The position numbers and the translations under genes were made by a program. Of a DNA stretch of 64,000 nt, positions 2,553 to 29,918 are shown one piece after another (the stretch's first letter is position 1; the number at the start of each line of letters is the position of its first letter). The notes beneath the pieces were generated by a model. That model was not told the DNA's origin and did not search any database. It worked only from the letters and a program-made list of their open reading frames with translations. The stretch covers positions 4,299 through 68,298 of the forward strand of contig NVTF01000002.1 of assembly GCA_002401485.1 (NCBI GenBank), given 5' to 3'. The stretch is from Elusimicrobiota bacterium. GTDB taxonomy: Bacteria > Elusimicrobiota > Elusimicrobia > UBA1565.

Positions 2553-2581
2553 TGACACTTTCACGAGCAAACAAGTAGAAT
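2553..2581 (+). promoter_or_regulatory. Sigma70-like promoter upstream of tandem receiver genes
   Basis: TTGACA (2553-2558), a 17-nt spacer, then TAGAAT (2576-2581), 8 nt before the ATG at 2589. Confidence 0.55.
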
Positions 2582-2588
2582 TCTCTCT

Positions 2589-2972: not shown

Positions 2973-2975
2973 TTT

Positions 2976-12030: not shown

Positions 12031-13154
12031 GTTCCAAACGCATCAACGCGATTCGCAAACAAGTCGACGCGTTTGACAACAGGTTGCTGAAAACGCTCGC
12101 CGGACGACGGAAAGCCGTATTGGCCCTGATTAAGGAAAAAGCCTCTTCCGACCGCCCCATTCGCGACCTGGGCCGTGAGGAAAAATTGCTCGCCCGCGTC
12201 ATCGGTGCCGGCCGGACGATCGGCCTGGATCCTGATTTTGTCCGCCGGGTGTATGAAGAAATTTTGGAAGACTCGGTTCGCGCCCAGCAGCGGCGCGCAC
12301 CGCAAGGGCGCGGCGTCATTCGCGTCGCCTTTCAGGGAATCGAAGGCGCCTACAGTGAACTCGCCGCGCGGCGCTTCTTCACCGACCGAAGCGGAAAGTT
12401 AAGCCTGTTGGGACGACCGACCTTCGACGAAGCTGTTTCCGCTGTTGATGAAGGGCATGCCGAATTCGCGATCCTCCCGATCGAAAATACGACCGCCGGC
12501 AGCATCAACGAGGTTTACGACCTCTTATCACGTTCCCGATTGCGCATCATCGGAGAGGAAATTCTCCCGGTTTCGCACTGCCTATTGGCCGTTGAAAAAG
12601 TTCCCGTCTCCAAAATCCGCCGCGTTTTATCCCACCCGCAAGCCTTGGCTCAGTGCATGCGTTTTTTAACCGGACTCTCGAATTGCACGACCGAATATTT
12701 CGGGGACACCGCGATGGCGGTGCGAAAAGTCGCTGCGGACAAAGACATTGCCCAAGCCGCCATCGCAAGCGAAGAAGCCGGCAAGCGATATGGACTGAAG
12801 GTCCTCCAACGCGATCTCGCCGATCAGAAGGACAACTTCACCCGATTTCTAGTCGTCGCCCATGACGCACCGCCGCCGCCGGCGCGGGTTCCCTGCAAAA
12901 CTTCAATTGTCATGGCGACAGCCCACAAGGAAGGAGCGCTCCTTCGCGCGTTGAACCATCTGCACGAAAGTAAAATCAATTTAACCAAGCTGGAAAGCCG
13001 CCCGGAACCGGGCAAACCGTTCCAATACCGATTTTTCATCGATTTCGAAGGACACGCAGACTTGCCCCATATTGCCGCCGCCCTCGCCAAGGTAAAAAAA
13101 GAAACGGCCTACCTTAAGATTCTCGGCAGTTACCCGGCTAGAAAACGATCATGA
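12006..13154 (+). CDS. pheA: Bifunctional chorismate mutase / prephenate dehydratase (P-protein)
   Basis: N-terminal CM region (INAIRKQVDAFDNRLLKTLAGRRKAV), PDT domain (VAFQGIEGAYSE..., ESRPEPGKPFQYRFFIDFEGH) and a C-terminal ACT domain. Overlaps the upstream gene by 25 nt. Confidence 0.88.
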   Translation: MDPRGRPVSSKRINAIRKQVDAFDNRLLKTLAGRRKAVLALIKEKASSDRPIRDLGREEKLLARVIGAGRTIGLDPDFVRRVYEEILEDSVRAQQRRAPQGRGVIRVAFQGIEGAYSELAARRFFTDRSGKLSLLGRPTFDEAVSAVDEGHAEFAILPIENTTAGSINEVYDLLSRSRLRIIGEEILPVSHCLLAVEKVPVSKIRRVLSHPQALAQCMRFLTGLSNCTTEYFGDTAMAVRKVAADKDIAQAAIASEEAGKRYGLKVLQRDLADQKDNFTRFLVVAHDAPPPPARVPCKTSIVMATAHKEGALLRALNHLHESKINLTKLESRPEPGKPFQYRFFIDFEGHADLPHIAAALAKVKKETAYLKILGSYPARKRS

Positions 13155-14119
13155 AAAATATTTTTGCTGCGGCACTGCTTCTTGCGTTCACGACAACTTC
13201 TTCTTACGCCCGATTCGCGCCGGTGCGATTAGGCTTGCGATCAACCACTCTCGTGACGGCGCCGGCTCTTGTTGTTCCCGGCACGCTTCTCGCGCAAAGC
13301 CTCACCCCAACACTTCCCTCTCTTTACGTATCGGCATTGGTGGTGCCGGCAGCGGTCGCCATAAAGAAAACGCCGATTCGAACATCGGTGCAGCGTGCAG
13401 CGGCTCCGGCCCCCCAACGTCGGAGTCCGGGCGCAGCCTCCCGCCATTGGACGGGATTTTTTGACGGAATCCAAGGAAAATCCGCGCCGACCGTTGTTGT
13501 CAACGCGGCCGACACCCCGTCACGCCCTCAGGTCGCGACGTCGGTAAAAGAAAAAGGCCTCGTGGGGCGCGAAGTCCCCGTTCCCGGCAACACCGCGCTC
13601 CAAAAACACGTCTCTTTCTTCGATCGCAACGGTGATGGAATCATTACCGTTTCCGAAACCCGCTTCCGCCTGCGCCAACTGGGATTTTCATGGACAAAAT
13701 CCGCATTTCTTTCATTCGTCATTCATGCCGGTCTCGCGAAATCGACATCCGCCTCTTGGACAGACGCGCTGCTGCTGCGCCTGAGCGTCGAAAAAATGCA
13801 CCTCGGAATTCATGCCGCTGATACCGGCATCTACGATGAACACGGCAATTTTGTGCCGGAAGCTTTCAAACGCCTCTTCGCCGATCACGCCAAGACCGAT
13901 CCTGCCTTTCTGACCGAGTCCGAGTTTCAAAACATGATCACGGCCAACGCCAAACGCCGCCCGGGAGCACTCGGCAAGTTCGCCGCCAAGCAGGAATTCG
14001 GCCTGCTCCTCGATATCGCATCCGACGGAAAGCTCGGAGAGGAGCGAACGATCAGCCGGTCCCGCATGGAAGGTTTCTACGATGGGACGCTCCTGTATAC
14101 ACTGGTCGGCGAACGTTGA
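13151..14119 (+). CDS. Secreted caleosin-like (EF-hand peroxygenase family) protein with a shared N-terminal module
   Basis: Signal peptide, then a ~130-aa Ala/Pro/Leu-rich module ending in FFDGIQGKSAPTVVVNAADTPSRP, then a caleosin-like domain: LQKHVSFFDRNGDGIITVSETRFRLRQLGF. The His and the canonical EF-hand loop D-x-N-x-D-G-x-I-x-x-x-E are both present. Confidence 0.7.
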   Translation: MKNIFAAALLLAFTTTSSYARFAPVRLGLRSTTLVTAPALVVPGTLLAQSLTPTLPSLYVSALVVPAAVAIKKTPIRTSVQRAAAPAPQRRSPGAASRHWTGFFDGIQGKSAPTVVVNAADTPSRPQVATSVKEKGLVGREVPVPGNTALQKHVSFFDRNGDGIITVSETRFRLRQLGFSWTKSAFLSFVIHAGLAKSTSASWTDALLLRLSVEKMHLGIHAADTGIYDEHGNFVPEAFKRLFADHAKTDPAFLTESEFQNMITANAKRRPGALGKFAAKQEFGLLLDIASDGKLGEERTISRSRMEGFYDGTLLYTLVGER

Positions 14120-14165
14120 CCCACCCCGCTTGACGGGGCGGGACTCACCTCGTACCCTATTCGCG

Positions 14166-15584
14166 ATGCGGACCCTATACGCCGTAATTGCACTCGCGCT
14201 GGTCAGCGCTGCCGATGCCGCTCCCTCCCGGCTTGAGACACTCTCGAAGCAAACGGACGCGCTCGTCATTGAAATCAATGCGCTCGACCGTTCCTTGCAG
14301 CTGCATTTGACGAGTTTTTCCCGGCAAGGGGCCGCGACCTCAGGTTCGACAAAAAAAGCACAAGCCTTGCGGCGTCGAACTGCGGCCCTGCTCAAACGGT
14401 GGAAGACCCCCTCTGCGGAATGGAAAAAAACATCCAAGGAACGCAGCAAACAATTCAAGGCGCAGCAACGATGGTTGACCGACTTAAACAAAAGCGTCCT
14501 TAAAGACCGCATCAAGATTCGAAAAGAGTTTGAAAAGGCGGCGGCGGCATGCGACCTTGGATCAATATCCGCGGGAATCGCCGCTCTTTGTCCGCGGGGA
14601 TGTCCTTCGAAAAAACTTATTCGCGGATACAGGCTGCCCTGCGCCCTTAAAGAACGCAAAACAGTGCTGCAGCTCCCCTTAAATCGACTTAGGTTGGAGG
14701 GCGGAAAACATCGAATAGACATCGAAGGCGGCGCGCTCAGCCTCCGGGCTCACGGTATCTACGCGCTCCGTGAACCGCTCTCGCGTTTTTGGACGGCATT
14801 TTATGCGCTCTCCATAAAATCCACCAACGCGAAAGAAATCGAAGCCCTGCGCCGCTACGCAGGTTACATACGAGAGGACTCCCCGGCGGAAACAATCGGC
14901 CCCGCCGCGCTTCAGCGGGTGATTTCGGTTTGGAATCTTCGGTCGCACGAGAACCCGGACGAACTGGAAACGGATGCCGAAACAACGGCCAAACGCGCCT
15001 ATTTTGAGATGTCCGGTGAAGCCGCTTCCGCGATTGCGGCGTCTTCCTCCTCAGGAATCCGGTCCCAACCGTCCGCCCGCGACGCGATTCGCCGCGTGCT
15101 GCGCGCGGCCGGAAGCTCGCGCGGTGTTTCCAACAGTGACGCGGAGCGCTTGCTCGCCGCCAATCGAACAACAGAAATCTCCGGTGCCTGGCCGGTTCAT
15201 TCCCTCAAGGCATCCGTCGCCTCGTTGGTCGGATCCGTGGTCGGCGCAGAGGTCTCGGAGGATGGGAATGTCGTTTTCTCTTCCTTCAAAAAACCGTACC
15301 GCGTGGTTGCGGACCCGGCAAAAGGTTCGTTTCGGGTTTGCCGCGATGCCTGCGGTGAAAACGATTTTTTGACCATCGATGGGAAGCCGCCGGTCGCGCC
15401 TGTTGTCAAAAAAGATCCACCCAAAATAATTATTAAGAAGAAGAAGAAAAAAAAGAAAAAGCGTTGGTGGTGGGGCGGTTCGAAGGACGATGAGGAGAAA
15501 GAGGAAAAAGAACCCACCGTCGTTGTAGATCCCAACGCTCCTCCGCCGCAGCCCACCTGGTTCCTCATTCAGGAATTGCAATAG
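14166..15584 (+). CDS. Secreted coiled-coil protein with C-terminal poly-Lys tract (hypothetical)
   Basis: Start placed at the ATG at 14166 (MRTLYAVIALALVSAADA signal peptide). The C-terminus is KKKKKKKKKRWWWGGSKDDEEKEEKE...FLIQELQ; the 14082 start given in the ORF table has no hydrophobic leader. Confidence 0.6.
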   Translation: MRTLYAVIALALVSAADAAPSRLETLSKQTDALVIEINALDRSLQLHLTSFSRQGAATSGSTKKAQALRRRTAALLKRWKTPSAEWKKTSKERSKQFKAQQRWLTDLNKSVLKDRIKIRKEFEKAAAACDLGSISAGIAALCPRGCPSKKLIRGYRLPCALKERKTVLQLPLNRLRLEGGKHRIDIEGGALSLRAHGIYALREPLSRFWTAFYALSIKSTNAKEIEALRRYAGYIREDSPAETIGPAALQRVISVWNLRSHENPDELETDAETTAKRAYFEMSGEAASAIAASSSSGIRSQPSARDAIRRVLRAAGSSRGVSNSDAERLLAANRTTEISGAWPVHSLKASVASLVGSVVGAEVSEDGNVVFSSFKKPYRVVADPAKGSFRVCRDACGENDFLTIDGKPPVAPVVKKDPPKIIIKKKKKKKKKRWWWGGSKDDEEKEEKEPTVVVDPNAPPPQPTWFLIQELQ

Positions 15585-15590
15585 TCCTGA

Positions 15591-16184
15591 ATGATCCATC
15601 TCTTACCGGGAATGGGCGCCACCTCGGCCATGTACGATGGCCCCTGGAAAAGCCTGCCCGATTCAAATCCGCTCGAATGGCCGACGCATCACGGGGAAAC
15701 AACAATTGCAGACGTCGCCCGGCGCATGATCGATGAACACGCGATCAGCGCCAGGGATTCGATCATCGGCAGTTCCCTGGGAGGCATCGTCGCCCTTGAG
15801 ATTCATCGTTTTCTTACCTTAAACCAAGTCATACTTGTCGGCAGCGCCGTCTCGCGAGCGGAGATCAACGGACTGCTTTTGGGCTTAGCGCCGCTGGCGC
15901 AAATAACCCCCCTGAAATTCATTCAGGTCTTGGCCGGAAAGACGCCGACCTTGATGTCGTCCATGTTTGCCGAGGTGGACAGTGACTTTATCAAGGCGAT
16001 GTGCGGCGCTGTCGCACAATGGGAAGGCTACACCGGTTCGAAAGAAAGGATCTCGCGCATTCATGGGGATCAGGATTTGATTATTGCCTGTCCGGCCGAC
16101 GCCCATGTGATCGCCGGCGGGGGGCATCTCATCGCGATCACCCATTCAGAAGACTGCGTGCGTCTCATTGAGGAATTGCAATGA
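15591..16184 (+). CDS. YqiA-like esterase (small alpha/beta hydrolase)
   Basis: 197 aa; IIGSSLGGIVA (GxSxG nucleophile elbow) and GGGHLIA resemble E. coli YqiA (IVGSSLGGYYA ... GGNHAF). Confidence 0.65.
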   Translation: MIHLLPGMGATSAMYDGPWKSLPDSNPLEWPTHHGETTIADVARRMIDEHAISARDSIIGSSLGGIVALEIHRFLTLNQVILVGSAVSRAEINGLLLGLAPLAQITPLKFIQVLAGKTPTLMSSMFAEVDSDFIKAMCGAVAQWEGYTGSKERISRIHGDQDLIIACPADAHVIAGGGHLIAITHSEDCVRLIEELQ

Positions 16185-17560
16185 GGAAAATTGCAATCCT
16201 GATGATTGCACTCTTCGCCTTGAACGTGTCCGCCGAACCGACGCAATCCCCTCGGCAGAGATGGCTTGACGCGTTTTTCCAAGCGGCGAACGAGTCCGCG
16301 CGGGTATGGCCAGGGCTCGAAATTTGGGATCGGCCGTTTCTGCTGACCGACGGGACAACCTGGAATGTCTTGTACGGACATCCAAACCCTCCCGCTAACT
16401 TCTCGCCGTTCACTTTAAGAGGACGAGACTTCCACACAAGTTCCCAACCGCCCGACTTCGAGGGTCTTAACTACAGCTACAAGTATGAACTCGGCGGCAT
16501 CGCGATCTATGCGCGCAGGGTGGAAATAGCCAACGACCTCCGCGACGGGTATCGAACCATGAACCGGGTGTTCCACAACCAATTTCATGAGTACCAAACC
16601 GTTGTACTTGCGGGGCGTGATCCCTTAAGCTCTCAACTGGGCCAACCCACCGCCTTCGATATTGCCGACGCCGATGCTGAAAACAGATTGTTAAAAGCGG
16701 CGTTAGGGGAGTCGGATTTAGAGGCGCTGCGCGACTTTATCGCTATTCGCAGCAGGACCCCCTCGCGCGCGGATCACGGGGAGTGGGTAGAGGGCATCGC
16801 CACGTATTATGATCTACGCGTATTTGAATCGGTTCGTGGAGAAGGAAGCGGAATTGCGGAAATTCTAGGAGAAATCACTAAAAAGACGGATCCCGTTCAT
16901 CGAAAAGCATCTCGTTATTATAGAACCGGCGCGGCCATTGGCTACCTGTTGGATCGTCTCGGGGCGGATTGGAAAGATCAGATTAAAGCGGGCGTACCCC
17001 CGTTTCAAATCCTGTCAGAAGCAATTTCAATGCCGGACACCGAAATCGACCGCCGCGCGGCGCGAGTTCGGTCGACACCAGAATACGAAACCGCTCTCGG
17101 CGTCATTAACGCCGAATTGGTTGAAGAAAGACGGGCCGCACGCAGCGCGCAGGAGCGCTATGATTCTGCAGAAGGCCCGCGGGTTCGCTTAATACTCATT
17201 CGTAATTCAGTAGCCGAACTACGATTTAATGCAGGCCCCAAATACGACTCCCCGAACCGGGAATACACGCTTCACACCGGCGGCGTTTTAGGACACGGCA
17301 AATCATGGGACGTGGAAATTTTCGATCGCATCTTACTGATGCGGTGGAAACACATGGCACGCGACCTGACATTTGCTCTCGGCGGCGGGGCACGGTGGAC
17401 CATAGACGGAAGAGAATGGGAACCTAGTGCGGGAGTGATCCAGGTCCGGGAAGTCGCAATCGAAAATGACAGCGTTGAGATTAGGGTCAGCGACGCCTTC
17501 ATTGAGGTCGAAGACAGCGGCATGATTACGATTTACAGCGCCGCGATCGGGAAGCATTAA
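16181..17560 (+). CDS. Secreted hypothetical protein
   Basis: 459 aa with a signal peptide (MRKIAILMIALFALNVSA), coding-like composition, and a start overlapping the upstream stop (ATGA). Confidence 0.6.
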   Translation: MRKIAILMIALFALNVSAEPTQSPRQRWLDAFFQAANESARVWPGLEIWDRPFLLTDGTTWNVLYGHPNPPANFSPFTLRGRDFHTSSQPPDFEGLNYSYKYELGGIAIYARRVEIANDLRDGYRTMNRVFHNQFHEYQTVVLAGRDPLSSQLGQPTAFDIADADAENRLLKAALGESDLEALRDFIAIRSRTPSRADHGEWVEGIATYYDLRVFESVRGEGSGIAEILGEITKKTDPVHRKASRYYRTGAAIGYLLDRLGADWKDQIKAGVPPFQILSEAISMPDTEIDRRAARVRSTPEYETALGVINAELVEERRAARSAQERYDSAEGPRVRLILIRNSVAELRFNAGPKYDSPNREYTLHTGGVLGHGKSWDVEIFDRILLMRWKHMARDLTFALGGGARWTIDGREWEPSAGVIQVREVAIENDSVEIRVSDAFIEVEDSGMITIYSAAIGKH

Positions 17561-17603
17561 CCCTCGAAATTAATAAGGAACTCCTAGGGGCCCGTTTGCT
17601 ATC

Positions 17604-18959
17604 ATGGGACTCTTGGAAGCCATCGACAAGTTTCTGTCTACTGCCGTTGACCTCGCCTGGGGCTGGCCTCTGATCGCCCTCCTCGTAGGCGGCGGCGCCT
17701 TCCTCACCCTCTATTCCCGGCTGATTCCCTTTCTCGGGTCCCGGCACGCGCTTGATATTGTACGCGGCAAATTCGACGACCCCGACGATCCGGGTCAAAT
17801 CAGTCACTTTCAGGCACTCACCACCGCTTTGGCATCCACAGTCGGCGTCGGCAATATCGGCGGCGTCGCAGTCGCCATCACCCAAGGCGGTCCCGGAGCG
17901 GTTTTCTGGATGTGGGTGGCGGCAATCGTCGGCATGGCGACGAAGTTTTTCACCTGCACCCTCGCCTCGATGTACCGAAGAGAAGACGAACTAGGCGTCG
18001 TGCAAGGCGGGCCGATGTACTACATCGAGGTCGGTCTCGGTAAAAAGTGGCGCTTCCTAGCCGTTCTCTTCTCGTCCTTCGGCCTGATCGGGTGTTTACC
18101 GATGTTCCAATCAAACCAACTCGCCGATGTTCTCAAGGGCTCCTACAACGTGCCGCCGCTCGCGGTCGGCATTGGCTGTTCCCTGATTGTCGGGGCCGTG
18201 ATTCTAGGCGGCATCCAACGCATCGGGCGCTTCACCGAAAAACTCGTTCCCTTCATGTGCGCTCTCTACATCATGGGCTGCCTTTACATCCTCGCCACTC
18301 GCGCCGGCCAAATTCCGGCCGTGCTTGCTTCGATTTTTCATGACGCTTTTACGGGGACAGCGGCCGTCGGGGGATTTGAAGGCGTCACCGTCAGCGCGGT
18401 GATCTCCATCGGCGTCAAACGCGCGGCATTCTCCAATGAAGCCGGGATCGGCACCGCCCCGATGGCTCACGGCGCGGCCAAAACCAAGGAACCCGTTCGC
18501 GAAGGGCTCGTCGCCATGGTCGGCCCGTTCATCGATACGATCATCATCTGTTCGATGACCGCCTTCGCGATTCTCTCCACCGACCTCTGGCATGCCAGCG
18601 GCGTGCAAGGCACCTCTCTTACCGCGAAGGTATTTGCCTCCGCGATGGGCTCAGGCGGAGAACTGCTCATCGCGGTGGTGGTGTGCATGTTCGCGATCTC
18701 CACCATGGTCGGCTATTCCTATTATGGAAAGAAGTGCTTCGCCTATCTCTTCGGCGCTCAGTGGGGCTTCGTGTATGAGTATTTCCTAATAGCCACCCTG
18801 ACCCTAGGCGCCGTCTGGTCCACCGGCAGCCTCGTCAACCTTCTCGACACCGCCTTCGCCCTCATGGCCTTCCCCAACATGATCGCCGCCCTGATGTTGT
18901 CGCCAGTAGTCATGGCCGCCGTCCACGACTACTTCAAACGCCAAAAACTTCTGGCATAG
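17604..18959 (+). CDS. agcS: Sodium:alanine symporter family transporter
   Basis: 451 aa, multi-TM; QALTTALASTVGVGNIGGVAVAI is the signature region of the AGCS family. Confidence 0.88.
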   Translation: MGLLEAIDKFLSTAVDLAWGWPLIALLVGGGAFLTLYSRLIPFLGSRHALDIVRGKFDDPDDPGQISHFQALTTALASTVGVGNIGGVAVAITQGGPGAVFWMWVAAIVGMATKFFTCTLASMYRREDELGVVQGGPMYYIEVGLGKKWRFLAVLFSSFGLIGCLPMFQSNQLADVLKGSYNVPPLAVGIGCSLIVGAVILGGIQRIGRFTEKLVPFMCALYIMGCLYILATRAGQIPAVLASIFHDAFTGTAAVGGFEGVTVSAVISIGVKRAAFSNEAGIGTAPMAHGAAKTKEPVREGLVAMVGPFIDTIIICSMTAFAILSTDLWHASGVQGTSLTAKVFASAMGSGGELLIAVVVCMFAISTMVGYSYYGKKCFAYLFGAQWGFVYEYFLIATLTLGAVWSTGSLVNLLDTAFALMAFPNMIAALMLSPVVMAAVHDYFKRQKLLA

Positions 18960-18969
18960 GTGCCGCATT

Positions 18970-19060
18970 GGTGCCAGGCACCGCGCACACTCCCCCCGTC
19001 GAGACATTTTTCGGAAATATGCTAAACGCAACAAACGCACGCGGTGCCTGGCACCTTTTG
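18970..19060 (+). terminator. Long hairpin plus U-tract downstream of agcS (terminator or attenuator)
   Basis: Perfect 16-bp inverted repeat GGTGCCAGGCACCGCG (18970-18985) / CGCGGTGCCTGGCACC (19040-19055), followed by TTTTG. Confidence 0.45.
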
Positions 19061-19066
19061 TATGAT

Positions 19067-19357: not shown

Positions 19358-19451
19358 TCCAAAAAGTCCTTTCGGCATAGGCCTCTTTCCAGCTTTTAAG
19401 GTCCCCTGATGGCCCTATAATGGACCGCCCATATCAGGATACAGTTCATCA

Positions 19452-22400
19452 GTGACAAAGGTCCTCTCGATTTGTCTTTCGGCCGCCTTGTTGTTCGCCC
19501 CAGCTCCTGCTGCGGCCAAGGTGCTGCGTTCGGCTCCCAGCAATGCCCCGACGTCATACGTGATTGGAGGAATGCCGGGGACCCTGTCGCATTCAAACAG
19601 CCTCCCCAGCCAACTCTTTCCTTTAGGAAGCACACTCACCGGGACGCTACCGACACTCTCGGTCCTTCCTACGCTAACCCCTCAGTCCAAGGTTGGAGTC
19701 CAAGCAATCGCGCCGGTTCTGAAGGCTGCTCCCAATCTCATCCGACACCAAGCCGCAGCCAAACGCCCGCCGACCACGCTCGAAACAGTTCAGACCTTCA
19801 CTAAGGAAGCCGCACCGCAAAAGAAGGGCGCCGCCGCCGCGAGTCTGCATCTCTTTGACGGACTCCAGACGAGGGTCGGTTCCCCAGTTGGCCTAGCGGT
19901 CAACGCGGCGGATGCCGCCCAAACTCCTTCACGTCCGATCTTCCACGTACCGGTGCACTCGTTTACTCTCGACAACGGACTTCAGGTCGTCGTTCAGCCC
20001 GATCACTCCAATCCGGTGGTGGCCGCAGCCGTCACCTACAAGGTTGGTTCCCGCAATGAAACGAAAGGCCTCTCCGGGTTAGCGCATTTCTTCGAACATT
20101 TGATGTTTGAGGGAACGTCGAACATGAAGCCCAACGAACTTTCAAATTTGATTTCCAACTACGGCGGCAATGACAACGCCCATACGATGGAAAACAACAC
20201 GGCCTATCATGAGATTTTTCCGAAGTCGCTGCTGAGGACCGTGCTTTGGGGGGAAGCCGACCGGATGAGAAATCTTTCTCTGACGCCGCATGTCGTGGCC
20301 AATGAAAAGAGCGTCGTCATTCAAGAGATGGGCCAAAGCGTCGAAAATCAAGCCTACGCCAAGGGCCACGTCGAGGGATTTCCGAGCCTCGCTTACGAAA
20401 AATGGATTAACCAGCATCGGGTGCTTGGTTCCCGTGAAGACGTTCGCGACGCGAGCCTTGAAGAAATCGAAGCGTTTTACAAGGCTCACTACGCGCCCAA
20501 CAACGCTGTCTTAACGCTGGTCGGCGACGTGACCCTCGCGGAAGCCAAAGAATTAGCCCAAGAATATTTCGGCGATGTGCCGCGGCGCAACGTCGCCCCC
20601 GCCCCCGACGTCTCAGAAGGTCCGATCGAAGGCGTTCGCAGGGCTGTTTTTGAAGACCCGCTGGTAACAACTCCTCTGACCATGGTCGGCTGGCGTCTGC
20701 CCCCCATCGGAACGCGGGATTACTGGGCGCTTAGCCTGTTGTCGCGAATTCTCTCCGGGGACGCGGGGAGTGTTCTCTATCAGAAACTCGTGAAGGAAAT
20801 GAAAATGGTCTTGGCGCTTGGCATGGCCGCGCCGCATTCCAACTTCTCCCATTTCGACGCGTCCGGACCACATCTATTTTCCGCCCTCTTCCAGCCGAAA
20901 GGAGACACCACTGTCGACTCAATCATCGAAGTAATCGACCGGGTACTTGCCGAATTCGCGAAAACCGGCCCGACCGAAAAGCAGCTGGCGGGAGCCAAGA
21001 CCTTCGCAGAAGTTCTCTGGATCGATGCGTTTGAGGATATGCGGGACCGTGCAGTCAATCTCGGATCCTACGCCGCCCTGATCCGCAACCCAGCCAATCT
21101 TCGCCACGATTTGCGCCGCATGTTGTCGATTAAGCCCGACGACGTCCGCCGGGCGATCAAGAAGTGGCTGCTCGGCACCGGTCGCGCCATCGCCGAAATT
21201 GTCCCAACGGATAAACCGCGCCAGGAACTCGCCTCTCAGGAGACAGAGGGCAATCATCCGGCGCAACCGGAATTTAATCCAACCTCGCGTCCGCCGCAAC
21301 CGGAAGGCCCGGGTGCATTCAAGTCTCCCGAAACAGTGGAGAAAATACTTCCCAACGGACTGCGCGTTGTCATGATCAGCGACTCACGCATGCCGACAGC
21401 GGAATTCAAACTTCGTTTTCCCGCAGGCACAAGCAACAGTGCTGCGAAATCGATTGCTGAAATCGTAGCCTTACCTGAGTTGGTGACCAAAGGCACGCGC
21501 ATGTTCAACGACTCCTCAATCGCAACAAAGTCCCGCGGGCTCGGCTGGAGCTTGAGAGCGGAAGGATTTGCAGAATCAACAGTCGTGCAAGGCGGCGGAC
21601 TTTCCCGGAATCTCCCCGAATTCCTCGAACTCTTATCCGAAGTGATTCAAGGCGCTTCCTACCCGGCGGATCAAATCAGCCTCTGGCAGGACGAGCAACT
21701 GGAAGAATTGATAGGCCGCAGGAAAGACATCGAGGCCCTGTCGGAAGATGTATGGCTCGACGAAATCTTCGGTGATCACGCCTACGCCCTGCGGGAGCCC
21801 AATGAAGAACAAACGATGGGCCTGACGCAGTACCGGTTGCGGCGGCTGCACGATTGGGTCTTTCGTCCCGATGGAGCGGTTCTGACCTTGGTCGGCGACT
21901 TCGATCCCGAAGAGATGGCCGGCATCATTGAGAAAAAATTCGCGGGCTGGAAAGGGCGCATGAGGGACGAAACCGTCGCGCCCGTAAACGACACAGGACC
22001 CAGCAGCATCGCCTTGGTCGACCTTCCCGGTGCGACCCAAGCCTCAATCGCCCTCGGAAAAACCATGGACATCGGCCCCAAACATAAAGACTGGGCGGCC
22101 TTCCACCTCATGAATCAAATCCTCGGCAACGACACGGGACGATTGCAAAACAACCTTCGCCGCGACCACGGCTATACCTATGGGGCCTACTCCCGCTTAT
22201 TTAATTTCAAGAAAGCGACGGCCTTTCAGGCAACGGCACAAACAGCCAACGCCGTTACCGGTGCGGCGATTACCGAGATGTTTAATGAGATTAACCGCCT
22301 GCGCGACGAAGAAGTGCCCGTTGAATTGCTGGAAGCGGCGAAACGTTTCTTAATCGGGCAGCAGCAGATCGCGCTCACCAAGCTGCACGGCATCGTCATA

Positions 22401-22619
22401 AATCTAGACAGCGTGACCTATCAAGGGCATGACTTTAAAGATCATATCGACGGCTTCATCGAACGAATCGAAAATATCACGCCCGCAGACATAAAAGCGA
22501 TGGCGAAAAAATATCTCAATCCGGCATCAATGAAGGTGACGGTCGTGGGAGACCGCGAAGCGCTGCAAGAAGATCTTCAATCCTTAGGACGCCCATTCCG
22601 GGTCGTCGAGCAGCACTAA
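19452..22619 (+). CDS. Secreted tandem M16 (pitrilysin/insulinase-like) zinc peptidase with the shared N-terminal module
   Basis: 1055 aa from a GTG start, with a signal peptide and a module ending LFDGLQTRVGSPVGLAVNAADAAQTPSRP. The first M16 unit carries the inverted zinc motif HFFEHLMFEG; a second inactive-type M16 unit follows (two M16 units is the usual PqqL-like arrangement). Confidence 0.88.
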   Translation: MTKVLSICLSAALLFAPAPAAAKVLRSAPSNAPTSYVIGGMPGTLSHSNSLPSQLFPLGSTLTGTLPTLSVLPTLTPQSKVGVQAIAPVLKAAPNLIRHQAAAKRPPTTLETVQTFTKEAAPQKKGAAAASLHLFDGLQTRVGSPVGLAVNAADAAQTPSRPIFHVPVHSFTLDNGLQVVVQPDHSNPVVAAAVTYKVGSRNETKGLSGLAHFFEHLMFEGTSNMKPNELSNLISNYGGNDNAHTMENNTAYHEIFPKSLLRTVLWGEADRMRNLSLTPHVVANEKSVVIQEMGQSVENQAYAKGHVEGFPSLAYEKWINQHRVLGSREDVRDASLEEIEAFYKAHYAPNNAVLTLVGDVTLAEAKELAQEYFGDVPRRNVAPAPDVSEGPIEGVRRAVFEDPLVTTPLTMVGWRLPPIGTRDYWALSLLSRILSGDAGSVLYQKLVKEMKMVLALGMAAPHSNFSHFDASGPHLFSALFQPKGDTTVDSIIEVIDRVLAEFAKTGPTEKQLAGAKTFAEVLWIDAFEDMRDRAVNLGSYAALIRNPANLRHDLRRMLSIKPDDVRRAIKKWLLGTGRAIAEIVPTDKPRQELASQETEGNHPAQPEFNPTSRPPQPEGPGAFKSPETVEKILPNGLRVVMISDSRMPTAEFKLRFPAGTSNSAAKSIAEIVALPELVTKGTRMFNDSSIATKSRGLGWSLRAEGFAESTVVQGGGLSRNLPEFLELLSEVIQGASYPADQISLWQDEQLEELIGRRKDIEALSEDVWLDEIFGDHAYALREPNEEQTMGLTQYRLRRLHDWVFRPDGAVLTLVGDFDPEEMAGIIEKKFAGWKGRMRDETVAPVNDTGPSSIALVDLPGATQASIALGKTMDIGPKHKDWAAFHLMNQILGNDTGRLQNNLRRDHGYTYGAYSRLFNFKKATAFQATAQTANAVTGAAITEMFNEINRLRDEEVPVELLEAAKRFLIGQQQIALTKLHGIVINLDSVTYQGHDFKDHIDGFIERIENITPADIKAMAKKYLNPASMKVTVVGDREALQEDLQSLGRPFRVVEQH

Positions 22620-23437
22620 TAGAGCCGTTCCTGCCCGCCGAGCATGCGGATTTTGTCCGCGATCAAGGCTATTCGTGAAAACGCGAGTCTGAGTTCGTCT
22701 TCCTCAAGAAGGCGATTTGAAATAAGACGCACCTCCGCGCCGCTCGCATGCAGCACGATTTCACGTTCGCCCCCGCGCAATTCAAACAGTTCGGAGATGC
22801 GCGCAACCATGGCGATGTCGAGAACGCCAAATACATAGTCGGCCGGAATCGCCTTAAAAATCAGATTCGCCGGCTGCCCTTCCAAACCGGTGAGCGCCGA
22901 TTGATCGGTGAGGGTTGTTCGAAATTTTTTGTCGCAGTCTTCATGGTGAATAAACAGAACACCGGAAATAAAGGGGGCCACTTGAGCCGAGAGAAGAACC
23001 TGGTATTCGTCTTCGTTTTCTCCAACGAACTTGAGGGAGAGCTCAATGGGCTTTTGCTCTGCAGCGCCGGGCGCTCCTCCCATTTTGGGAGACTCCCGCC
23101 ACAGCCCCATCAGTCCTTTGGGAAGAGTCCTCATCTTCTGGAATCCGATCTCATGACCCTCCACCTCGATGGTGGTTAAAGAAGCGACCGCCTTCTCCTG
23201 TCGCTGCCGTACATCGCGATGCAGGAAATAAAGCGCGGCGAGAAATGCCGGAATGGTGATGATCGATGGAAGATAGAAGGTATAACCGATGCCGGCGCAC
23301 AGAATCGCAACCGCCCCGGGCACCGCCCATGAACGCATTTCAGCATCGCCGAATCGGCGAAGCCCAAAACCCACCGCCGCAGCACCTATAACAGTTGATG
23401 TCAGCAGAACAACGGGACTTTGAGCATCAAGAGTCAT
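22616..23437 (-). CDS. Hypothetical membrane protein (last gene of the hutI operon)
   Basis: 273 aa with N-terminal TM helices; its start overlaps the stop of the upstream cyclodeaminase. Confidence 0.55.
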   Translation of the reverse strand: MTLDAQSPVVLLTSTVIGAAAVGFGLRRFGDAEMRSWAVPGAVAILCAGIGYTFYLPSIITIPAFLAALYFLHRDVRQRQEKAVASLTTIEVEGHEIGFQKMRTLPKGLMGLWRESPKMGGAPGAAEQKPIELSLKFVGENEDEYQVLLSAQVAPFISGVLFIHHEDCDKKFRTTLTDQSALTGLEGQPANLIFKAIPADYVFGVLDIAMVARISELFELRGGEREIVLHASGAEVRLISNRLLEEDELRLAFSRIALIADKIRMLGGQERLY

Positions 23438-24021
23438 CGCGCCGTCAGTTCGCGGCGAATATCTTCAGCGAGATCGCGCAAGCGTTTCGCCTCTTTTTCG
23501 TCCTTAAGCGACGCTGCGTTGATCTCGACATTTTCAAGAGCGCACAACCCCGCCGCACGCACTAAATGGATTGCGCAATTAACATCCGACGTGACCGTTC
23601 CAATGGTCTGAGTCTCGACGTCTGCGAGCTTTTCAAGGATCTCGGCGGCCTTATCAGCCGTCTCAAGAGGCACCTCACCCGCATGAACAAGCGCGGCGTG
23701 CAGCTTGGCCGGACGTTTGGGATCGTCCTTGGGAAGAGCATACACATCCATAAACGCGTCAAAGGCGGCGGCGTCTTCCGCGGTCAGGCGTTCAAATTCA
23801 AGTTGCTCTTTCTTAAAATCGTCCAGCGCCCAAGAAAGCGCTTCACGGCGCCCGTCGTCCATTTTTTTGGATTTGGATTTTGCGCTGATGCCGGCGGCCA
23901 TGCGCGCCAGGGCGCAGGCAATCACACCCGCCACACCGGCGGCAGAACCACCCCCCGGCGTTGCGTCGGTATTTGAAAATGCTTCCCCAAGTATGGATGC
24001 GGCTTTTTTCCAATCACTCAT
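23434..24021 (-). CDS. Formiminotetrahydrofolate cyclodeaminase / methenyl-THF cyclohydrolase family protein (FTCD C-terminal-like)
   Basis: 195 aa; the GGGSAAGVAGVIACALARM motif and all-helical composition match the cyclodeaminase/cyclohydrolase family. Confidence 0.7.
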   Translation of the reverse strand: MSDWKKAASILGEAFSNTDATPGGGSAAGVAGVIACALARMAAGISAKSKSKKMDDGRREALSWALDDFKKEQLEFERLTAEDAAAFDAFMDVYALPKDDPKRPAKLHAALVHAGEVPLETADKAAEILEKLADVETQTIGTVTSDVNCAIHLVRAAGLCALENVEINAASLKDEKEAKRLRDLAEDIRRELTAR

Positions 24022-25313
24022 GGCTTTAAAATTAACGTCCTCGTTTGAGTATATTCCTGCATCGCCCAGCGCACGCCTTCCCGACCGGTGCCGGATTCCT
24101 TATTGCCGCCGTACGGCATAAGATCCGATCGGTAGGTCGGAACGTCGTTCACCATAAGGCCGCCCACGTCCAACTGCTCCCACGCCCCCAACACCCGCTC
24201 AATATCCCGGGTAAATATTCCCGCCTGCAGGCCGTAACGGCTTTTCGAAATTTCCAACAAGCCATGTTCGATCCCTGGAATTTTCTCCAGGGTCGCGACG
24301 GGCCCGAACACTTCTTCGCAAATCAATTTGCTGTCAGCCGGGGCCATTTCCACAACCGTCGGTCCGATCACACTCCCGTCGCGAGTCCCCCCGCACAAGA
24401 CCGACGCGCCAGCGGCCTTCGCTTCATCGATCCACTGCTCAACACGGATGGCCGCCGCTTCATTAATCATCGGACCGAGATCGGTTTTTTCATCGGCGGG
24501 CTCCCCGACAACCAGCTCCGCGACGTTTTCAAGGAGTAATTTCTTGAATTCCTCATACACCGGTTCTGCCGCTAAAATCCGCTGCGTCGAAATGCAGATC
24601 TGCCCCGAATACACAAACGCACCCGCTGCGCACCGCGCGGCTGCCAACGGGAGATCGGCGTCCTCAGCAATAATCACGCTCGCGTTGCCGCCCAACTCAA
24701 GCACGACATGGCGGCGGGGATTTAAGGCTTTTAATTTCCAGCCGACGTCGGCGCTTCCGGTAAACGACAAAACGGCGAAACGATCGTCCATAACGAGAGT
24801 TTCGGCTTCTTGGTTCGAACATACATGCACGGCAAAACCCTCTTCGGGCCAACCCGCCTCTTTGATGATGTCCCCTAACCGCTTCGCCGTTTTCGGCGCC
24901 TGCGGCGCAGGTTTGAGCACGAAGGGCGCGCCCACCGCCATCGCGGGAGCGATTTTGTGCACAGCCAAATTAAGCGGGAAATTGAAGGGCGTAATGAAGA
25001 GACAGGCACCCCTCGGAAACCGGCGCACCAGCGCCATGCGTCCCTCTCCCCCGGCGTCAACATCAAGCGGCATCCACTCACCGCCAAACCGCTCCGCTTC
25101 CCCCGCCGCCCACTGAAAGTTAAAAACGGCCCGCTCGACTTCCCCCCGCGCGGCCTTCAGAGGTTTTCCGACCTCCTCTACAATCAAGGAAGCGAAAGCC
25201 TCACGCTGCTTTCCAATGGCATCAGAAACGGCACGCAGAATGCGCGCCCGTTCATGCACGGGCATCGCCGCGAGACGCGGACCCGACGCTAAAGTTCGAT
25301 CCAACGCATCCAT
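24018..25313 (-). CDS. NAD(P)-dependent aldehyde dehydrogenase
   Basis: 431 aa with ALDH motifs FTGSADVGWKL, VLELGGN and the catalytic Cys region GQICIS. Confidence 0.88.
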   Translation of the reverse strand: MDALDRTLASGPRLAAMPVHERARILRAVSDAIGKQREAFASLIVEEVGKPLKAARGEVERAVFNFQWAAGEAERFGGEWMPLDVDAGGEGRMALVRRFPRGACLFITPFNFPLNLAVHKIAPAMAVGAPFVLKPAPQAPKTAKRLGDIIKEAGWPEEGFAVHVCSNQEAETLVMDDRFAVLSFTGSADVGWKLKALNPRRHVVLELGGNASVIIAEDADLPLAAARCAAGAFVYSGQICISTQRILAAEPVYEEFKKLLLENVAELVVGEPADEKTDLGPMINEAAAIRVEQWIDEAKAAGASVLCGGTRDGSVIGPTVVEMAPADSKLICEEVFGPVATLEKIPGIEHGLLEISKSRYGLQAGIFTRDIERVLGAWEQLDVGGLMVNDVPTYRSDLMPYGGNKESGTGREGVRWAMQEYTQTRTLILKP

Positions 25314-25990
25314 TGTTTGATATTCCTAAAATCCTTGGTGAGATGATCGGGGCCGGCGGCGGCCAGGTCCTTCCACGGCGACCAACCGGTGCCCACCGCT
25401 ATTGTTCGATATCCGGCACGTTTGCCCGCACTCACATCAAGCGGAGTATCCCCGATGATCCAAACATTGCGGCGGAAAATTCGTTTTCCCCCGATTTTTT
25501 TACGAGCGCGCGCAACGCCGCAGCGCAGAAGGTTGGGTCTATAATAAGAATCGGAACCATACCCCCCGAAATCGAAATAGCCGGATAGTCCGGATGGAAG
25601 AAGTTTGATCCAAGCCCCCTTTTCAAGATTCCCCGTGCCAAGACCGAGCAGCACATCCTCCTGCTTAGACAATCGTTCCAATAAAGGTCGAATCCCCGGA
25701 GTTGTTTTGTATGTTTTCCGGCGAAGCGAAATGCGCACCTGTTTGGGCAATTCCTTCAAATATTCCCGATGAACAGCCGCAATCTGACGCGGCGTCGCGC
25801 GCCGCTTGGTTACCGCCGTGATTGCTTCGGAAAAATTCCTCAAATCCGTCTTTCCTTGAAAATTGAGAAGCTTGCATACACCGGCGACTCCATGACGACG
25901 CTCGACGGCTTTGTCGAGTGCACGTCCTCCCGCCCCCCCTGCTCGGACCAGGGTTCCATCAAGATCAAACAAGAGAACCTTCATGCTCAT
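25289..25990 (-). CDS. HAD-superfamily hydrolase (phosphatase)
   Basis: LLFDLDGTLV (motif I), a motif II Thr, and IIGDTPLDVSAG (motif IV). Confidence 0.8.
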   Translation of the reverse strand: MSMKVLLFDLDGTLVRAGGAGGRALDKAVERRHGVAGVCKLLNFQGKTDLRNFSEAITAVTKRRATPRQIAAVHREYLKELPKQVRISLRRKTYKTTPGIRPLLERLSKQEDVLLGLGTGNLEKGAWIKLLPSGLSGYFDFGGYGSDSYYRPNLLRCGVARARKKIGGKRIFRRNVWIIGDTPLDVSAGKRAGYRTIAVGTGWSPWKDLAAAGPDHLTKDFRNIKQWMRWIEL

Positions 25991-27285
25991 AAAAGTTTTC
26001 CCTTCTTAAAGACCTTCGAGACGATATTTGATCCGAACCAATACGCCAGCTCACGGTAATCGCTGCAGTCGAGAATGATCACATCAGCCTGCTTTCCTTT
26101 TTCAAGCGAGCCGTGCGTCTTGCCTAGACCCAAAGCGTGCGCCCCGTTGATCGTTGAGGCAATAATCGCCTCCTCCACGGTCATGCCCATTTGCGTGGTC
26201 GCTATCGAAATTACTTCCTGCATATTCCAACAGGGACAGGTTCCCGGGTTAAAATCAGTGGCCAAAGCGACCGGAACGCCGGCGTCTATGATCTTTCGCG
26301 CGTCGGGATAGTCTCGATGGCCTAGAAAATGATTCGATCCAGGAACCAAGGCAGCGATCACACCGGCCTCCCGCAACTTCACGAGATCAACTGCATCCGC
26401 GTGGTCGAGATGATCCGCCGACGCGGCCTTTAGCTCCGCGGCAAGGGAGGCCCCGCGGGAACGCGTAAGCTGCTCCGCATGAATCCGGACGCCCAAACCG
26501 GCGTCCGCGCCGGCTTTTAGAAATTTACGGCATTCAAATTGCGAGAAAAAACCCTTTTCGCAAAAGGCGTCGACAAATTTAGCGAGCCCCTCCTGAACAA
26601 CAACAGGGAGAACATCCTTAATAAGCATGTCCACATATTCCCCGGGACGACCTTGATACTCGGGCGGAATGGCATGAGCACCCAGAAAGGTTGGGACGAA
26701 TTCGAGAGGAGAACCCGCAGCGACGTGTTTGATCGCACGTAAAGCCTTGAGCTCGGAATCTTTATCAAGCCCATATCCCGTCTTCGCTTCGATGGTTGTT
26801 GTGCCGCATTCAGTGAATCGAGAGCTCTGATCCAGCAGGCGCTGGGTTAATTCTGATTCAGTCGCCCCACGGGTCGACCGTATACTCGATACGATGCCCC
26901 CGCCCTGAGCCGCGATCTCCTGATAGGACTTTCCCGAGGTCCGCAGTCCGAAATCCTTCAGCCGCGCTTCGCCGAATACGGGATGGGTGTGGCAATCGAC
27001 AAATCCGGGCATGACGATGCGCCCGCCCGCATCATGAATTTGCCCTTTTTTCACCTCGGGATCACGCAAAACGGTGTCGGCGAGCCCCACTAATTGAATG
27101 AGCCCTTTATCCATGAACACGGCTCCATTGCGGATAAGGCCGACGGAGCGCATCCCCCCTTTCGTGCGGGGTTCATGATCCCCGGCGAGAGTCAAAAGCG
27201 TCGCATTCGTGATGAGCTGCTTCATAATCAAGGCGATTCTACTAATTCCGCTCCTCTCGATTTGATATGCTAGCGGAGGGGCCAA
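25987..27285 (-). CDS. hutI: Imidazolonepropionase (amidohydrolase)
   Basis: VDCHTHPVF metal site, TTIEAKTGYGL, GAHAIPPEYQ and ATDFNPG blocks match HutI closely (B. subtilis HutI has GAHAIPPEYQ and ATDFNPG identical). The real start is probably the ATG at 27225 (MKQLITNATLL). Confidence 0.85.
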   Translation of the reverse strand: MAPPLAYQIERSGISRIALIMKQLITNATLLTLAGDHEPRTKGGMRSVGLIRNGAVFMDKGLIQLVGLADTVLRDPEVKKGQIHDAGGRIVMPGFVDCHTHPVFGEARLKDFGLRTSGKSYQEIAAQGGGIVSSIRSTRGATESELTQRLLDQSSRFTECGTTTIEAKTGYGLDKDSELKALRAIKHVAAGSPLEFVPTFLGAHAIPPEYQGRPGEYVDMLIKDVLPVVVQEGLAKFVDAFCEKGFFSQFECRKFLKAGADAGLGVRIHAEQLTRSRGASLAAELKAASADHLDHADAVDLVKLREAGVIAALVPGSNHFLGHRDYPDARKIIDAGVPVALATDFNPGTCPCWNMQEVISIATTQMGMTVEEAIIASTINGAHALGLGKTHGSLEKGKQADVIILDCSDYRELAYWFGSNIVSKVFKKGKLL

Positions 27286-27349
27286 AGGACCTATATCAGG
27301 ACCACCCCCTTGGCCCTACAACGGACCTTCCGGAGCACCTAAACTATTA

Positions 27350-28627
27350 GTGATGACGCACGAACCGCATAAACTCTCGATCCTTATCATCGATGATGAA
27401 CCCGGTGATGCGGAGCTGCACGCACGGATAATTGCCGCAGCGGGCTACCACGTCGAAACAGCCGAGACGCTGTACCAAGCGCGGGCTAAAATAGCCGATC
27501 ACAGCTTTGCCGTTCTTCTAGTGGATTTGCGCCTCCCGGATGGAGATGGACTTCAGCTTCTCGAGCCGGCTCGCGCCAACGACCCCCATACAGTTGCCGT
27601 CGTAATCACCGCCTTCACCTCCGTCGAAAGTGCGGTCGCCGCCATTAAGGCCGGCGCCTACGATTTTCTGACCAAACCGACACCTTCGGAAAAACTCGTC
27701 TCAACAATTCATCGTGCCGCCGAACGGTATTATCTTGCAAAATCGCTCGCGGAACGCACCGATGAACTTAAATCCACCAACGAACACTTGGATCAACGCG
27801 TCAAAGACGCCACGGAAGAGATTTTTGAACTGAACGAGCGACTTCGCCGGTACGTCGGTCAACTCGTGGAAACCAACAATCATCAGACCCACTACCTTGA
27901 GGACATGGCACACGAACTTAAAAATCCTTTGGCTGTTGTCATGGGATATGCCAGTTACCTCACGTCCTCTCCCATCGAAACTTTCGAGAAGCGTGAAATC
28001 GAAAAATGCCTGGATGCCGTGCAAGAGAATTCAAAACACCTGCACGCGCTCATTGAAGAACTACTCGATTCAACACGCTTGGCCAGCCGCAAAATCACGA
28101 TTAAACCCATCAGACTCTCAGGGGCCAAAGCCCTTACGGATGCGGTTCACGGGATGCGTTTTAAAGCGGAGGAGCGGGGAATAACCATTACTCTGAATCT
28201 GCCCGCCGGCGACAAACTCACGATGGCCGCTGACCCCAACCGACTCAAACAAATTATCAACAACCTTATTACCAACGCGGTTAAATTCACTCCGTCCGGC
28301 GGGACCATTGCGGTTTCAGGACGCCTCCGTGGGAAGAAGATCGAAGTTACCGTTTCCGACACCGGCTGCGGCATGAGCGAGAATCAGGTCGAACGTATTT
28401 TCGATCGCTTCTATCAAGTTTTCGGCCCCAAAAACGGCTCCAATCGAGGGCTCGGTCTTGGACTCAATATTGTGCAGGGTCTCGTTAAACTGCACGGCGG
28501 CCGCATCTGGGCTCAGAGTGAAGAGGGCCGCGGTTCGAAGTTTTACTTCACGATGCCGACATCCTTGTCGGGCATCCCGTCCGGCTCAGTAGAATACGAA
28601 GACGTTCCCGCCCCCATCCAAAACTAA
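27350..28627 (+). CDS. Hybrid receiver-histidine kinase (N-terminal REC + HisKA + HATPase_c)
   Basis: N-terminal receiver (ILIIDDEPGD..., LLVDLRLPDGDG, ITAFTS), an H-box (ed: MAHELKNPLAV), then N, G1 (SDTGCGM) and G2 (GLGLGL) boxes. Confidence 0.85.
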   Translation: MMTHEPHKLSILIIDDEPGDAELHARIIAAAGYHVETAETLYQARAKIADHSFAVLLVDLRLPDGDGLQLLEPARANDPHTVAVVITAFTSVESAVAAIKAGAYDFLTKPTPSEKLVSTIHRAAERYYLAKSLAERTDELKSTNEHLDQRVKDATEEIFELNERLRRYVGQLVETNNHQTHYLEDMAHELKNPLAVVMGYASYLTSSPIETFEKREIEKCLDAVQENSKHLHALIEELLDSTRLASRKITIKPIRLSGAKALTDAVHGMRFKAEERGITITLNLPAGDKLTMAADPNRLKQIINNLITNAVKFTPSGGTIAVSGRLRGKKIEVTVSDTGCGMSENQVERIFDRFYQVFGPKNGSNRGLGLGLNIVQGLVKLHGGRIWAQSEEGRGSKFYFTMPTSLSGIPSGSVEYEDVPAPIQN

Positions 28628-28715
28628 GTCCCGCGAGGCCCAAATCTGCATGGGCCTAAAGAATCCTTACATCTACCTCAACGACCTATACGTGCCCGAT
28701 TGACAATTCGATACC

Positions 28716-29918
28716 GTGGCTCTCATGCTTAAGACATCTTTTAGTCTAGTGTCCGCGTTCGCATTGCTGCTGTCGCTCGTTTCACCGGCATCGGCACGCG
28801 TCGTCATTGGAGCCGCCGCTCGCTCCGCAACGATCGCCCCCGCACCGCTCGGCGCATTCCGCGCCCCCTTGGTCAACCCAGGCATCGGTGCGCCTACCCT
28901 CATTGCGCCTTCATTAAGCCTGGATGTCGGTCTACCGACCTTGCTTCCGGTGCTGACACAAGGACTTCCGATGACCGCCGCGCCGAAAGTACACGTGCAG
29001 AAAACCGCACCAGCACCCGCAGCCCTGCGGCGGGAATTCAAACCGCTTCCCGGAATACAAACAACTGTGCGCACGGATAATAAGAAGGTCCCGCTGCGCC
29101 AAACCCTTGAAGCAACGGCAAAAGATTCCAAGTCCGTCGCGAAAATGAATTTGGGCGCCGCGCGTTTTAACGCGGGACGCTTATTCGACGGAACGGGCAA
29201 CCACCGCGGACTGGTCAACGCCGCCGATGCGCAAAGCTGGCGCAATCCGGATTGGTCGGAAGACCGGCGCATCAACCGCGCACTTCGCAGCCTTTACGAT
29301 TCAGAAACCGGATCAGCCCTCTACAATGACGTTCGCAGCAACCAACCCGACCTCCGCATTCGTGTAGACACCGCCCGCGATTCCTACTACGACGCCCGCA
29401 TGCGCTGGGAAGACGGGAACCCGGTCCTTTACCTAACCGAGTCGCTTGTCGACAATGAATCGAAGGAAGCCCTCGCCGCCTACATCGCACGGGAATTCAC
29501 AGACCTGTACTTCATCGACTTCCCGGCTTCCGTAGAAATGAATTATCTCGCCCACGGATCGATGCTCCGCGTATTTGCAGAACTCACCGACAGCGGGAGA
29601 TCGAGGTACAACTATTGGTGGGACCAATCCAAGGACCAGCGCGTCGGCGATTCCTACGCGTTTGAAAGTTATTACGGCTCCTGGAAAACGGCCGCGTACA
29701 ACAAGGAACGCTTCGGAACAGCCGTCCGCCGCTCGGAATTTTTCCGTTATCTGAAAAACCAAGACATCTCAAATAAGGATCCGAACTCAAGCAAAACAAT
29801 CCACCAGCACTACCAAAACGGAGACATCAGCTACTCCACTTATCGCAGGTTCGCCAAGCAATTCGGGGAACTCACGGATGCCGAAGCCTCATGGTTCGGC
29901 GACACGGGACGCTGGTAA
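28716..29918 (+). CDS. Secreted hypothetical protein with the shared N-terminal module
   Basis: Signal peptide, a Pro/Ala/Leu-rich module ending RLFDGTGNHRGLVNAADAQ, and a C-terminal Tyr/Trp-rich domain of unknown function. Confidence 0.6.
   Translation: MALMLKTSFSLVSAFALLLSLVSPASARVVIGAAARSATIAPAPLGAFRAPLVNPGIGAPTLIAPSLSLDVGLPTLLPVLTQGLPMTAAPKVHVQKTAPAPAALRREFKPLPGIQTTVRTDNKKVPLRQTLEATAKDSKSVAKMNLGAARFNAGRLFDGTGNHRGLVNAADAQSWRNPDWSEDRRINRALRSLYDSETGSALYNDVRSNQPDLRIRVDTARDSYYDARMRWEDGNPVLYLTESLVDNESKEALAAYIAREFTDLYFIDFPASVEMNYLAHGSMLRVFAELTDSGRSRYNYWWDQSKDQRVGDSYAFESYYGSWKTAAYNKERFGTAVRRSEFFRYLKNQDISNKDPNSSKTIHQHYQNGDISYSTYRRFAKQFGELTDAEASWFGDTGRW

Follow-up and report, generated by a model that had tools for sequence, protein, structure and literature searches.

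Three exported proteins with a common N-terminal architecture

The 64-kb stretch of DNA analyzed here (the window) is part of a 68.6-kb contig from an uncultured Elusimicrobia/Elusimicrobiota metagenome-assembled genome (locus tags COB53_005xx). Our subject is an N-terminal element found in the products of three of its genes, here called A, B and C, each listed as a "hypothetical protein" in the source annotation. A first-pass annotation had described the three products as unrelated secreted enzymes sharing a homologous N-terminal module of about 130 amino acids (aa). The three open reading frames (ORFs), their coordinates and the quoted peptides recur exactly in the ORF list, all on the + strand, as are the parts of A, B and C and gene D given below. 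In A, B and C alike we observe a signal peptide, then an uncharged Pro-rich spacer, then a conserved block that adjoins the folded domain; spacer and block together are referred to as the extension.

Gene A (13151..14119; 322 aa; PCI40639.1), assigned from its ORF and from Pfam, encodes a secreted caleosin-like protein in which PF05042 spans aa 147-318 with E = 5.5e-39 and a score of 134 bits, above the cutoff of 27. By reading, it has an EF-hand, FFDRNGDGIIT, and the segment LQKHVSFFD with its conserved His, and both are also present in metagenomic homologs. A Sec-type signal peptide, read from the sequence, takes up aa 1-20 (13151..13210; ...SSYA/RF, cut between A and R). It is followed by a Pro/Ala/Leu/Thr-rich uncharged spacer recognized by composition (aa 21-70; 13211..13360) and by the junction block IKKTPIRTSVQ...FFDG...VNAAD TPSRPQ (aa 71-127; 13361..13531), delimited by BLASTP, hidden Markov model (HMM) and alignment. 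Within the block, FFDG lies at 13457-13468 and VNAAD at 13499-13513.

Gene B (19452..22619; 1055 aa; PCI40645.1) encodes a secreted, four-domain M16 zinc peptidase, identified in Pfam by PF00675 (87 bits) and by PF05193 (213 bits in 2 stretches). There is one active-type M16 domain along with several inactive-type ones, and by reading the inverted zinc motif HxxEH is present as HFFEH. Its signal peptide (aa 1-22; 19452..19517; ...PAAA/KV, sequence reading) precedes a Pro/Leu/Thr-rich spacer defined by composition and ortholog comparison (aa 23-102; 19518..19757). The junction block, AKRPPTTLETVQTF...LFDG...VNAAD AAQTPSRPI (aa 103-163; 19758..19940), is set by ortholog conservation and a cross-family HMM, with LFDG at 19851-19862 and VNAAD at 19899-19913.

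Gene C (28716..29918; 400 aa; PCI40652.1) encodes a secreted protein of an Elusimicrobiota-specific family that matches nothing in Pfam or NCBIfam. Its C-terminal domain (aa ~175-400; 29238-29915) has a zincin-like fold. We found no conserved HExxH or variant zinc motif in the C family: across its 16-member alignment no His is invariant or nearly so, and for that reason we do not file C as a zincin peptidase. The folded domains of the three proteins are unrelated, as had been claimed, but the description of C as an enzyme is not borne out. The signal peptide of C (aa 1-27; 28716..28796; ...PASA/RV) was read from the sequence and keeps its position in orthologs. It is followed by a Pro/Ala/Leu-rich spacer (aa 28-121; 28797..29078), predicted to be disordered on composition and on AlphaFold2 (AF2) confidence, and by the junction block NKKVPLRQTLEAT...LFDG...VNAAD AQSWRNP (aa 122-178; 29079..29249), defined by family alignment and AF2, with LFDG at 29181-29192 and VNAAD at 29214-29228.

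All three signal peptides were called by eye from small residues at -3/-1 (SSYA/R, PAAA/K, PASA/R), and the same reading shows neither a twin-arginine nor a prepilin motif in the leaders of A, B or C. The leaders of A and C contain no Cys, and the Cys of B, at residue 8, is too early for a lipobox and is absent from the ortholog of B in locus L008, which agrees with the earlier view that the element is not a lipobox. Nor is it an S-layer homology (SLH) domain, as was also supposed: PF00395 gives no match at E <= 0.1 in A, B or C. Composition of the extension is similar throughout, with Pro, Ala, Leu and Thr making up 46-49% of residues (49% in aa 22-126 of A).

A homologous and selected junction block

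The block follows the consensus K-K-x-P-[VIL]-R-x-x-L-E-x-T ... [LF]FDG-x(6-12)-[VA]N[AG][AV][D]-x(0-5)-R-x(0-1)-P. This comprises a basic amphipathic helix, [LF]FDG, a short strand-prone segment h-V-N-A-[AV]-[D], and R-x-P immediately before the fold, and its position is collinear in A, B and C. After composition-based statistics, BLASTP aligns A with B at 35% identity over 122 aa (E = 2e-6), with weaker pairwise values for B-C (E = 0.005) and A-C (E = 0.11); the corresponding shuffle z-scores are 9.1, 4.9 and 3.8. We also searched 8,835 ORFs from 1.06 Mb of DNA, mostly of unrelated bacteria, with 56-column HMMs of the block. A profile built from C proteins only returned, as its top matches outside the C family, the B ortholog (20.7 bits), B (18.5 bits) and A (17.4 bits), with the next ORF at 10.3 bits. 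Reciprocally, a profile of A and B only found the C orthologs at 17-19 bits, with the next ORF at 9 bits. The junction block of ~55 residues is homologous in all three proteins.

It could be asked whether the likeness is a product of chance or of low complexity, with no common origin. The Pro-rich half gives no signal across families, the A-C pair taken alone reaches just E = 0.11 after composition correction, and the database-wide search described below also returned repeat proteins with ELFDGL as false positives. Against these points stand the A-B alignment, which survives the same correction, and the reciprocal HMM detection with its gap of 7-10 bits to all other ORFs. The 37 window proteins contain 3 instances of the pattern [LF]FDG-x(6-14)-VNA[AV], where residue shuffling predicts 0.0005, and in a six-frame scan of the window [FYLW]DG-x(2-25)-[VIL]N[AS][AS]D is confined to the ORFs of A, B and C. 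The block sits at the same position in all three proteins, and in orthologs it is under purifying selection. A chance origin of the block is in effect already refuted, and we regard it as scarcely credible.

The homology that can be demonstrated covers ~55-60 residues, rather than the ~130 first proposed. HMMs made from the Pro-rich N-terminal half alone found no cross-family match in either direction, and the shared PGTL, LP[ST]L and AAPAP of that half, although present as described, do not go beyond composition and very short matches. The low-complexity explanation therefore fails for the block and stands for the Pro-rich half. Recent duplication of the modules was considered and ruled out: they have no DNA-level similarity to one another, so they are not recent copies and any copying must be old. 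Neither Pfam nor NCBIfam has a curated family over the extension, no PDB sequence matched it below E = 0.2, and a search of the literature found nothing relevant to the motif or to protein sorting in Elusimicrobiota. Judged by sequence, the element is an N-terminal extension following the signal peptide, with a conserved junction motif, that belongs to no described family.

Comparison of B with its one close ortholog, in L008, separates the two parts of the extension. The junction block (aa 105-165 in this comparison) is 85% identical, with a proportion of nonsynonymous differences (pN) of 0.086, and the M16 domain is 79-90% identical. Spacer identity is 60% over aa 23-76 and 24% over aa 77-104, where pN is about 0.5. 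Synonymous sites are near saturation (proportion of synonymous differences, pS, 0.63-0.9), and the ortholog uses different codons in the block region (GTT instead of GTC). Given 85% identity alongside near-saturated synonymous sites, the block is translated, and purifying selection constrains it as strongly as the catalytic domain. Within the C family, F157 and D158 are invariant among the 16 members, and L131 of the helix and R176 of the junction are conserved.

The first-pass annotation had also called for a prediction of disorder and structure, and AF2 run on C with its 16-sequence alignment predicts the extension to be disordered. The predicted local distance difference test score (pLDDT) is 33-46 for residues 1-172 and ~90 for residues 175-400, and the extension has just two weak helices, at 129-141 and 146-155. 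In this model the block of C is not packed on its own domain. Single-sequence AF2 of B residues 1-640 gave a mean pLDDT of 33 and was uninformative. The analysis thus shows a homologous block that is under selection, predicted to be disordered, carried on different folds and limited in its distribution.

Distribution and candidate roles

The portability and lineage restriction foreseen by the first-pass annotation are both borne out by the relatives of the three genes. We recovered 16 members of the C family, down to 39% identity, from Elusimicrobiota-labeled and unlabeled metagenome records only, and the extension is kept in all 16; by family search and record labels, the element is restricted to Elusimicrobiota. 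The ortholog of B (74% identity, full extension) lies in L008 (JAJDDX010000286.1), a 2.5-kb contig binned as Phycisphaerae. As its gene bears the block and matches an Elusimicrobiota gene this closely, the contig is probably mis-binned. At 79 other M16 loci, from other phyla, the alignment to B starts only at residue ~127-171, and caleosin homologs from metagenomes (35-43% identity) have short N-termini and no block. The lack of the block in distant caleosin and M16 homologs, together with its presence on three unrelated folds, fits a portable N-terminal element. About 10 other signal-peptide proteins in the window have no block, so the block is selective and not a general trait of exported proteins here.

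A related locus, L002, whose C protein is 69% identical, has a syntenic stretch without A, the two genes after A, and B. Since they are absent at this syntenic site, A and B look like lineage-specific gains carrying the same N-terminal element. Compared with L002 positions 1-3800, the window has two extra gene segments, at 13151-16184 (A, a 500-aa ORF and a small alpha/beta hydrolase) and at 19452-22619 (B), and the positions are otherwise syntenic. Each of these segments begins with the block-bearing gene, and GC (guanine plus cytosine) content is unremarkable across them.

Such gains, together with the small number of carriers and a Pro-rich part that evolves as freely as aa 77-104 of B, would suit a passive spacer with a generic N-terminal cap. 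Here an ancestral leader-plus-linker cassette would have been copied onto new genes by recombination and kept as a flexible spacer, and the block would merely be a helix and strand that stabilize or oligomerize its protein with no dedicated recognition machinery. Conservation of the block, however, equals that of a catalytic domain, and LFDG persists in C orthologs of ~40% identity (as [LF]FDA in two). Any copying was old, as noted above. A cap would also be expected to suit its fold, whereas the block adjoins three different ones and lies unpacked on the C domain in the AF2 model. These last two observations disfavor a structural cap, and we consider the passive cassette unlikely.

To look for further carriers, we ran an exhaustive HMMER search of the block profile against 1.84 billion representative proteins (a 50%-identity library) at E <= 1e-3. 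The seven matches were four C-family members, B and two repeat-protein false positives. The latter (P0019 and P0021) consist of PPR/TPR-like repeats with ELFDGLLERG or AVLDGFGDKAP in every repeat and reach E = 1e-5 to 1e-6 through summed repeats, a warning for motif scans of this kind. No A-like protein appeared in this search, although A represents its own 90% cluster and reaches 64 bits in a local comparison with the block profile; the 50% cluster of A may be represented by a relative without the block or with a diverged one.

We propose, tentatively, that the block is a linear motif confined to this lineage, carried on a flexible N-terminal tether and bound in trans for docking, sorting or maturation. 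The Sec signal peptide that would export A, B and C is probably cleavable. Behind it come a fast-evolving, largely uncharged spacer of 50-95 residues, rich in Pro, Ala, Leu and Thr and predicted to be disordered, and then a junction block of ~55 residues directly before the caleosin, M16 or zincin-like domain. On such a flexible tether the block could act as a short linear motif: after Sec export, an envelope partner would bind it in trans, and the bound block would fix the place of the protein in the periplasm, at the outer membrane or on the cell surface. We favor a docking or sorting handle because short conserved segments that lie in disordered sequence and do not depend on the neighboring fold typify linear motifs.

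Several observations weigh against this proposal. VNAAD is not kept in distant C orthologs (VNAV, VNGV, or absent), and two distant C orthologs have [LF]FDA in place of LFDG. The call of disorder comes from a shallow alignment of 16 sequences in one family. The main argument is the small number of carriers: a signal for general sorting should occur on far more cargo than the three host families known, yet no further carrier family appears among the 1.84 billion representatives at E <= 1e-3, where a carrier as distant from the profile as the three families are from one another would score 17-23 bits and be invisible at that database size. Nor did ~120 kb of other, distinct Elusimicrobiota loci outside the window give a new carrier. 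The evidence for a system is therefore thin.

A cleavable pro-region is a different possibility. The extension would keep the proteins latent or protected during export until a protease, possibly the M16 peptidase B, cut the junction around VNA/AD or R-x-P. The element sits where propeptides sit, between signal peptide and folded domain; the extension is predicted to be disordered and hence accessible to a protease; and the Arg at the boundary is conserved in all families. Mitochondrial and chloroplast M16 processing peptidases recognize amphipathic presequences in which an Arg lies close to the cut, M16 enzymes cleave presequences that lack structure, and here a processing-type M16 peptidase, itself block-bearing, is encoded in the same 17-kb stretch. 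The location is also that of the Inhibitor_I9, FTP/PepSY and M4 pro-domains, and the fold of two of the three carriers is that of a peptidase or resembles one. Yet those classical bacterial propeptides are folded and family-specific, whereas the present region is predicted to be disordered, matches no I9, FTP, PepSY or similar model in Pfam, and also occurs on a caleosin, which is not a protease; C, for its part, has no catalytic His residues. L002 keeps C with no B at the corresponding place, an observation on that locus only, as B may lie elsewhere. Non-protease cargo and the lack of a fold disfavor a classical propeptide, and we think a pro-region rather unlikely.

The strand-prone segment h-V-V-N-A could instead act by beta-augmentation, pairing with a periplasmic energy-transducing or chaperone protein (TonB/Tol-like, or a POTRA domain). 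TonB boxes, for example DTLVVTA, form short strands in otherwise disordered N-termini, and they, like the motifs of colicin translocation domains, are bound in trans by periplasmic proteins. PTVVVNA of A and GLAVNA of B likewise lie in a disordered N-terminal region, and the case lies in the resemblance of TVVVNA in A to DTLVVTA. The segment is weakly conserved in the C family, however (GAVNAV, SANAV, or absent), where LFDG is the best-kept part of the block, and Pfam finds no transporter plug or barrel in A, B or C, which also lack a colicin architecture. We hold a TonB-box-like role to be very unlikely.

By function, a docking or sorting handle would most resemble the tether and sorting regions of surface lipoproteins; otherwise read, the element would most resemble protease pro-regions. 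Surface-lipoprotein tethers carry localization information and act beside a lipidated Cys. As in the Borrelia tether and the lipoprotein export signal of Bacteroidota, the present extension is a disordered segment right after the signal peptide and is found on unrelated cargo. It differs in that none of the three proteins has a lipobox Cys where its signal peptide is cleaved, and in that the extension is 100-150 aa long with its conserved part at the far end, beside the folded domain. SLH domains, which serve as envelope anchors, are also N-terminal on diverse secreted proteins, but SLH is a folded repeat of ~55 aa with a Pfam model. The C-terminal tags, namely the C-terminal domain (CTD) of the type IX secretion system (T9SS), PEP-CTERM with exosortase, GlyGly-CTERM with rhombosortase and LPXTG with sortase, are likewise short tags on unrelated secreted proteins of one lineage. 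Each genome encodes tens to hundreds of cargo proteins with such a tag, alongside an enzyme dedicated to its processing, whereas the present tag is N-terminal and known on three cargo families.

Elusimicrobiota are a largely uncultured diderm phylum for which, to our knowledge, no envelope-protein sorting system has been described. A conserved, selected motif on three unrelated exported proteins would offer a handle for finding a partner or a processing enzyme. A bolder version, which we consider improbable, is that the block is the N-terminal sorting or maturation signal, acting after the signal peptide, of an undescribed Elusimicrobiota envelope pathway. The receptor or processing enzyme, which might be the block-bearing M16 peptidase itself, would be peculiar to the lineage, and further diverged cargo would lie beyond profile searches. 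If so, the block would be an N-terminal counterpart of CTD, PEP-CTERM or LPXTG tags. Were it instead merely a reused leader-plus-linker cassette, it would be a small case of N-terminal module shuffling, with better annotation of three "hypothetical protein" families as its main use.

Gene D and other genes of the window

Directly associated with C is a further gene, D (29938..31626), which we describe as context and not as a carrier of the block. It encodes a secreted protein of ~540-570 aa and follows C in all eight distinct contexts (the window, L002, L003, L005, L006, L100, L102 and L103). The protein has a signal peptide, a PrcB_C-like N-terminal domain recognized by weak matches, a helix followed by [YF]DG (in four of five aligned orthologs), GKPLPG/PPPPG repeats and a conserved C-terminal domain. 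D was considered as a block carrier and rejected: its [YF]DG resembles the LFDG block with no statistical support (9.6 bits, E = 0.11). Together, C and D may make up a protease-like complex of the envelope.

The 500-aa ORF downstream of A (14082-15584) has no family match and an unusual C-terminal tail, ...KKDPPKIIIKKKKKKKKKRWWWGGSKDDEEKEEKE...; translation probably begins at the internal MRTLYAVIALALVSA signal peptide. Further along the window, at 43436-60108, lies a gene for a giant protein of 5213 aa with many fibronectin-III repeats and a sub-threshold FlgD_ig-like match at its C-terminus. It is followed by a 379-aa ORF with no Pfam match, whose start overlaps the 3' end of the giant gene. 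In L003, a FlgD_ig protein adjoins a faint PorV-like gene. Together, the giant protein with its 379-aa neighbor and the pair in L003 hint at a T9SS-like C-terminal sorting pair in the phylum.

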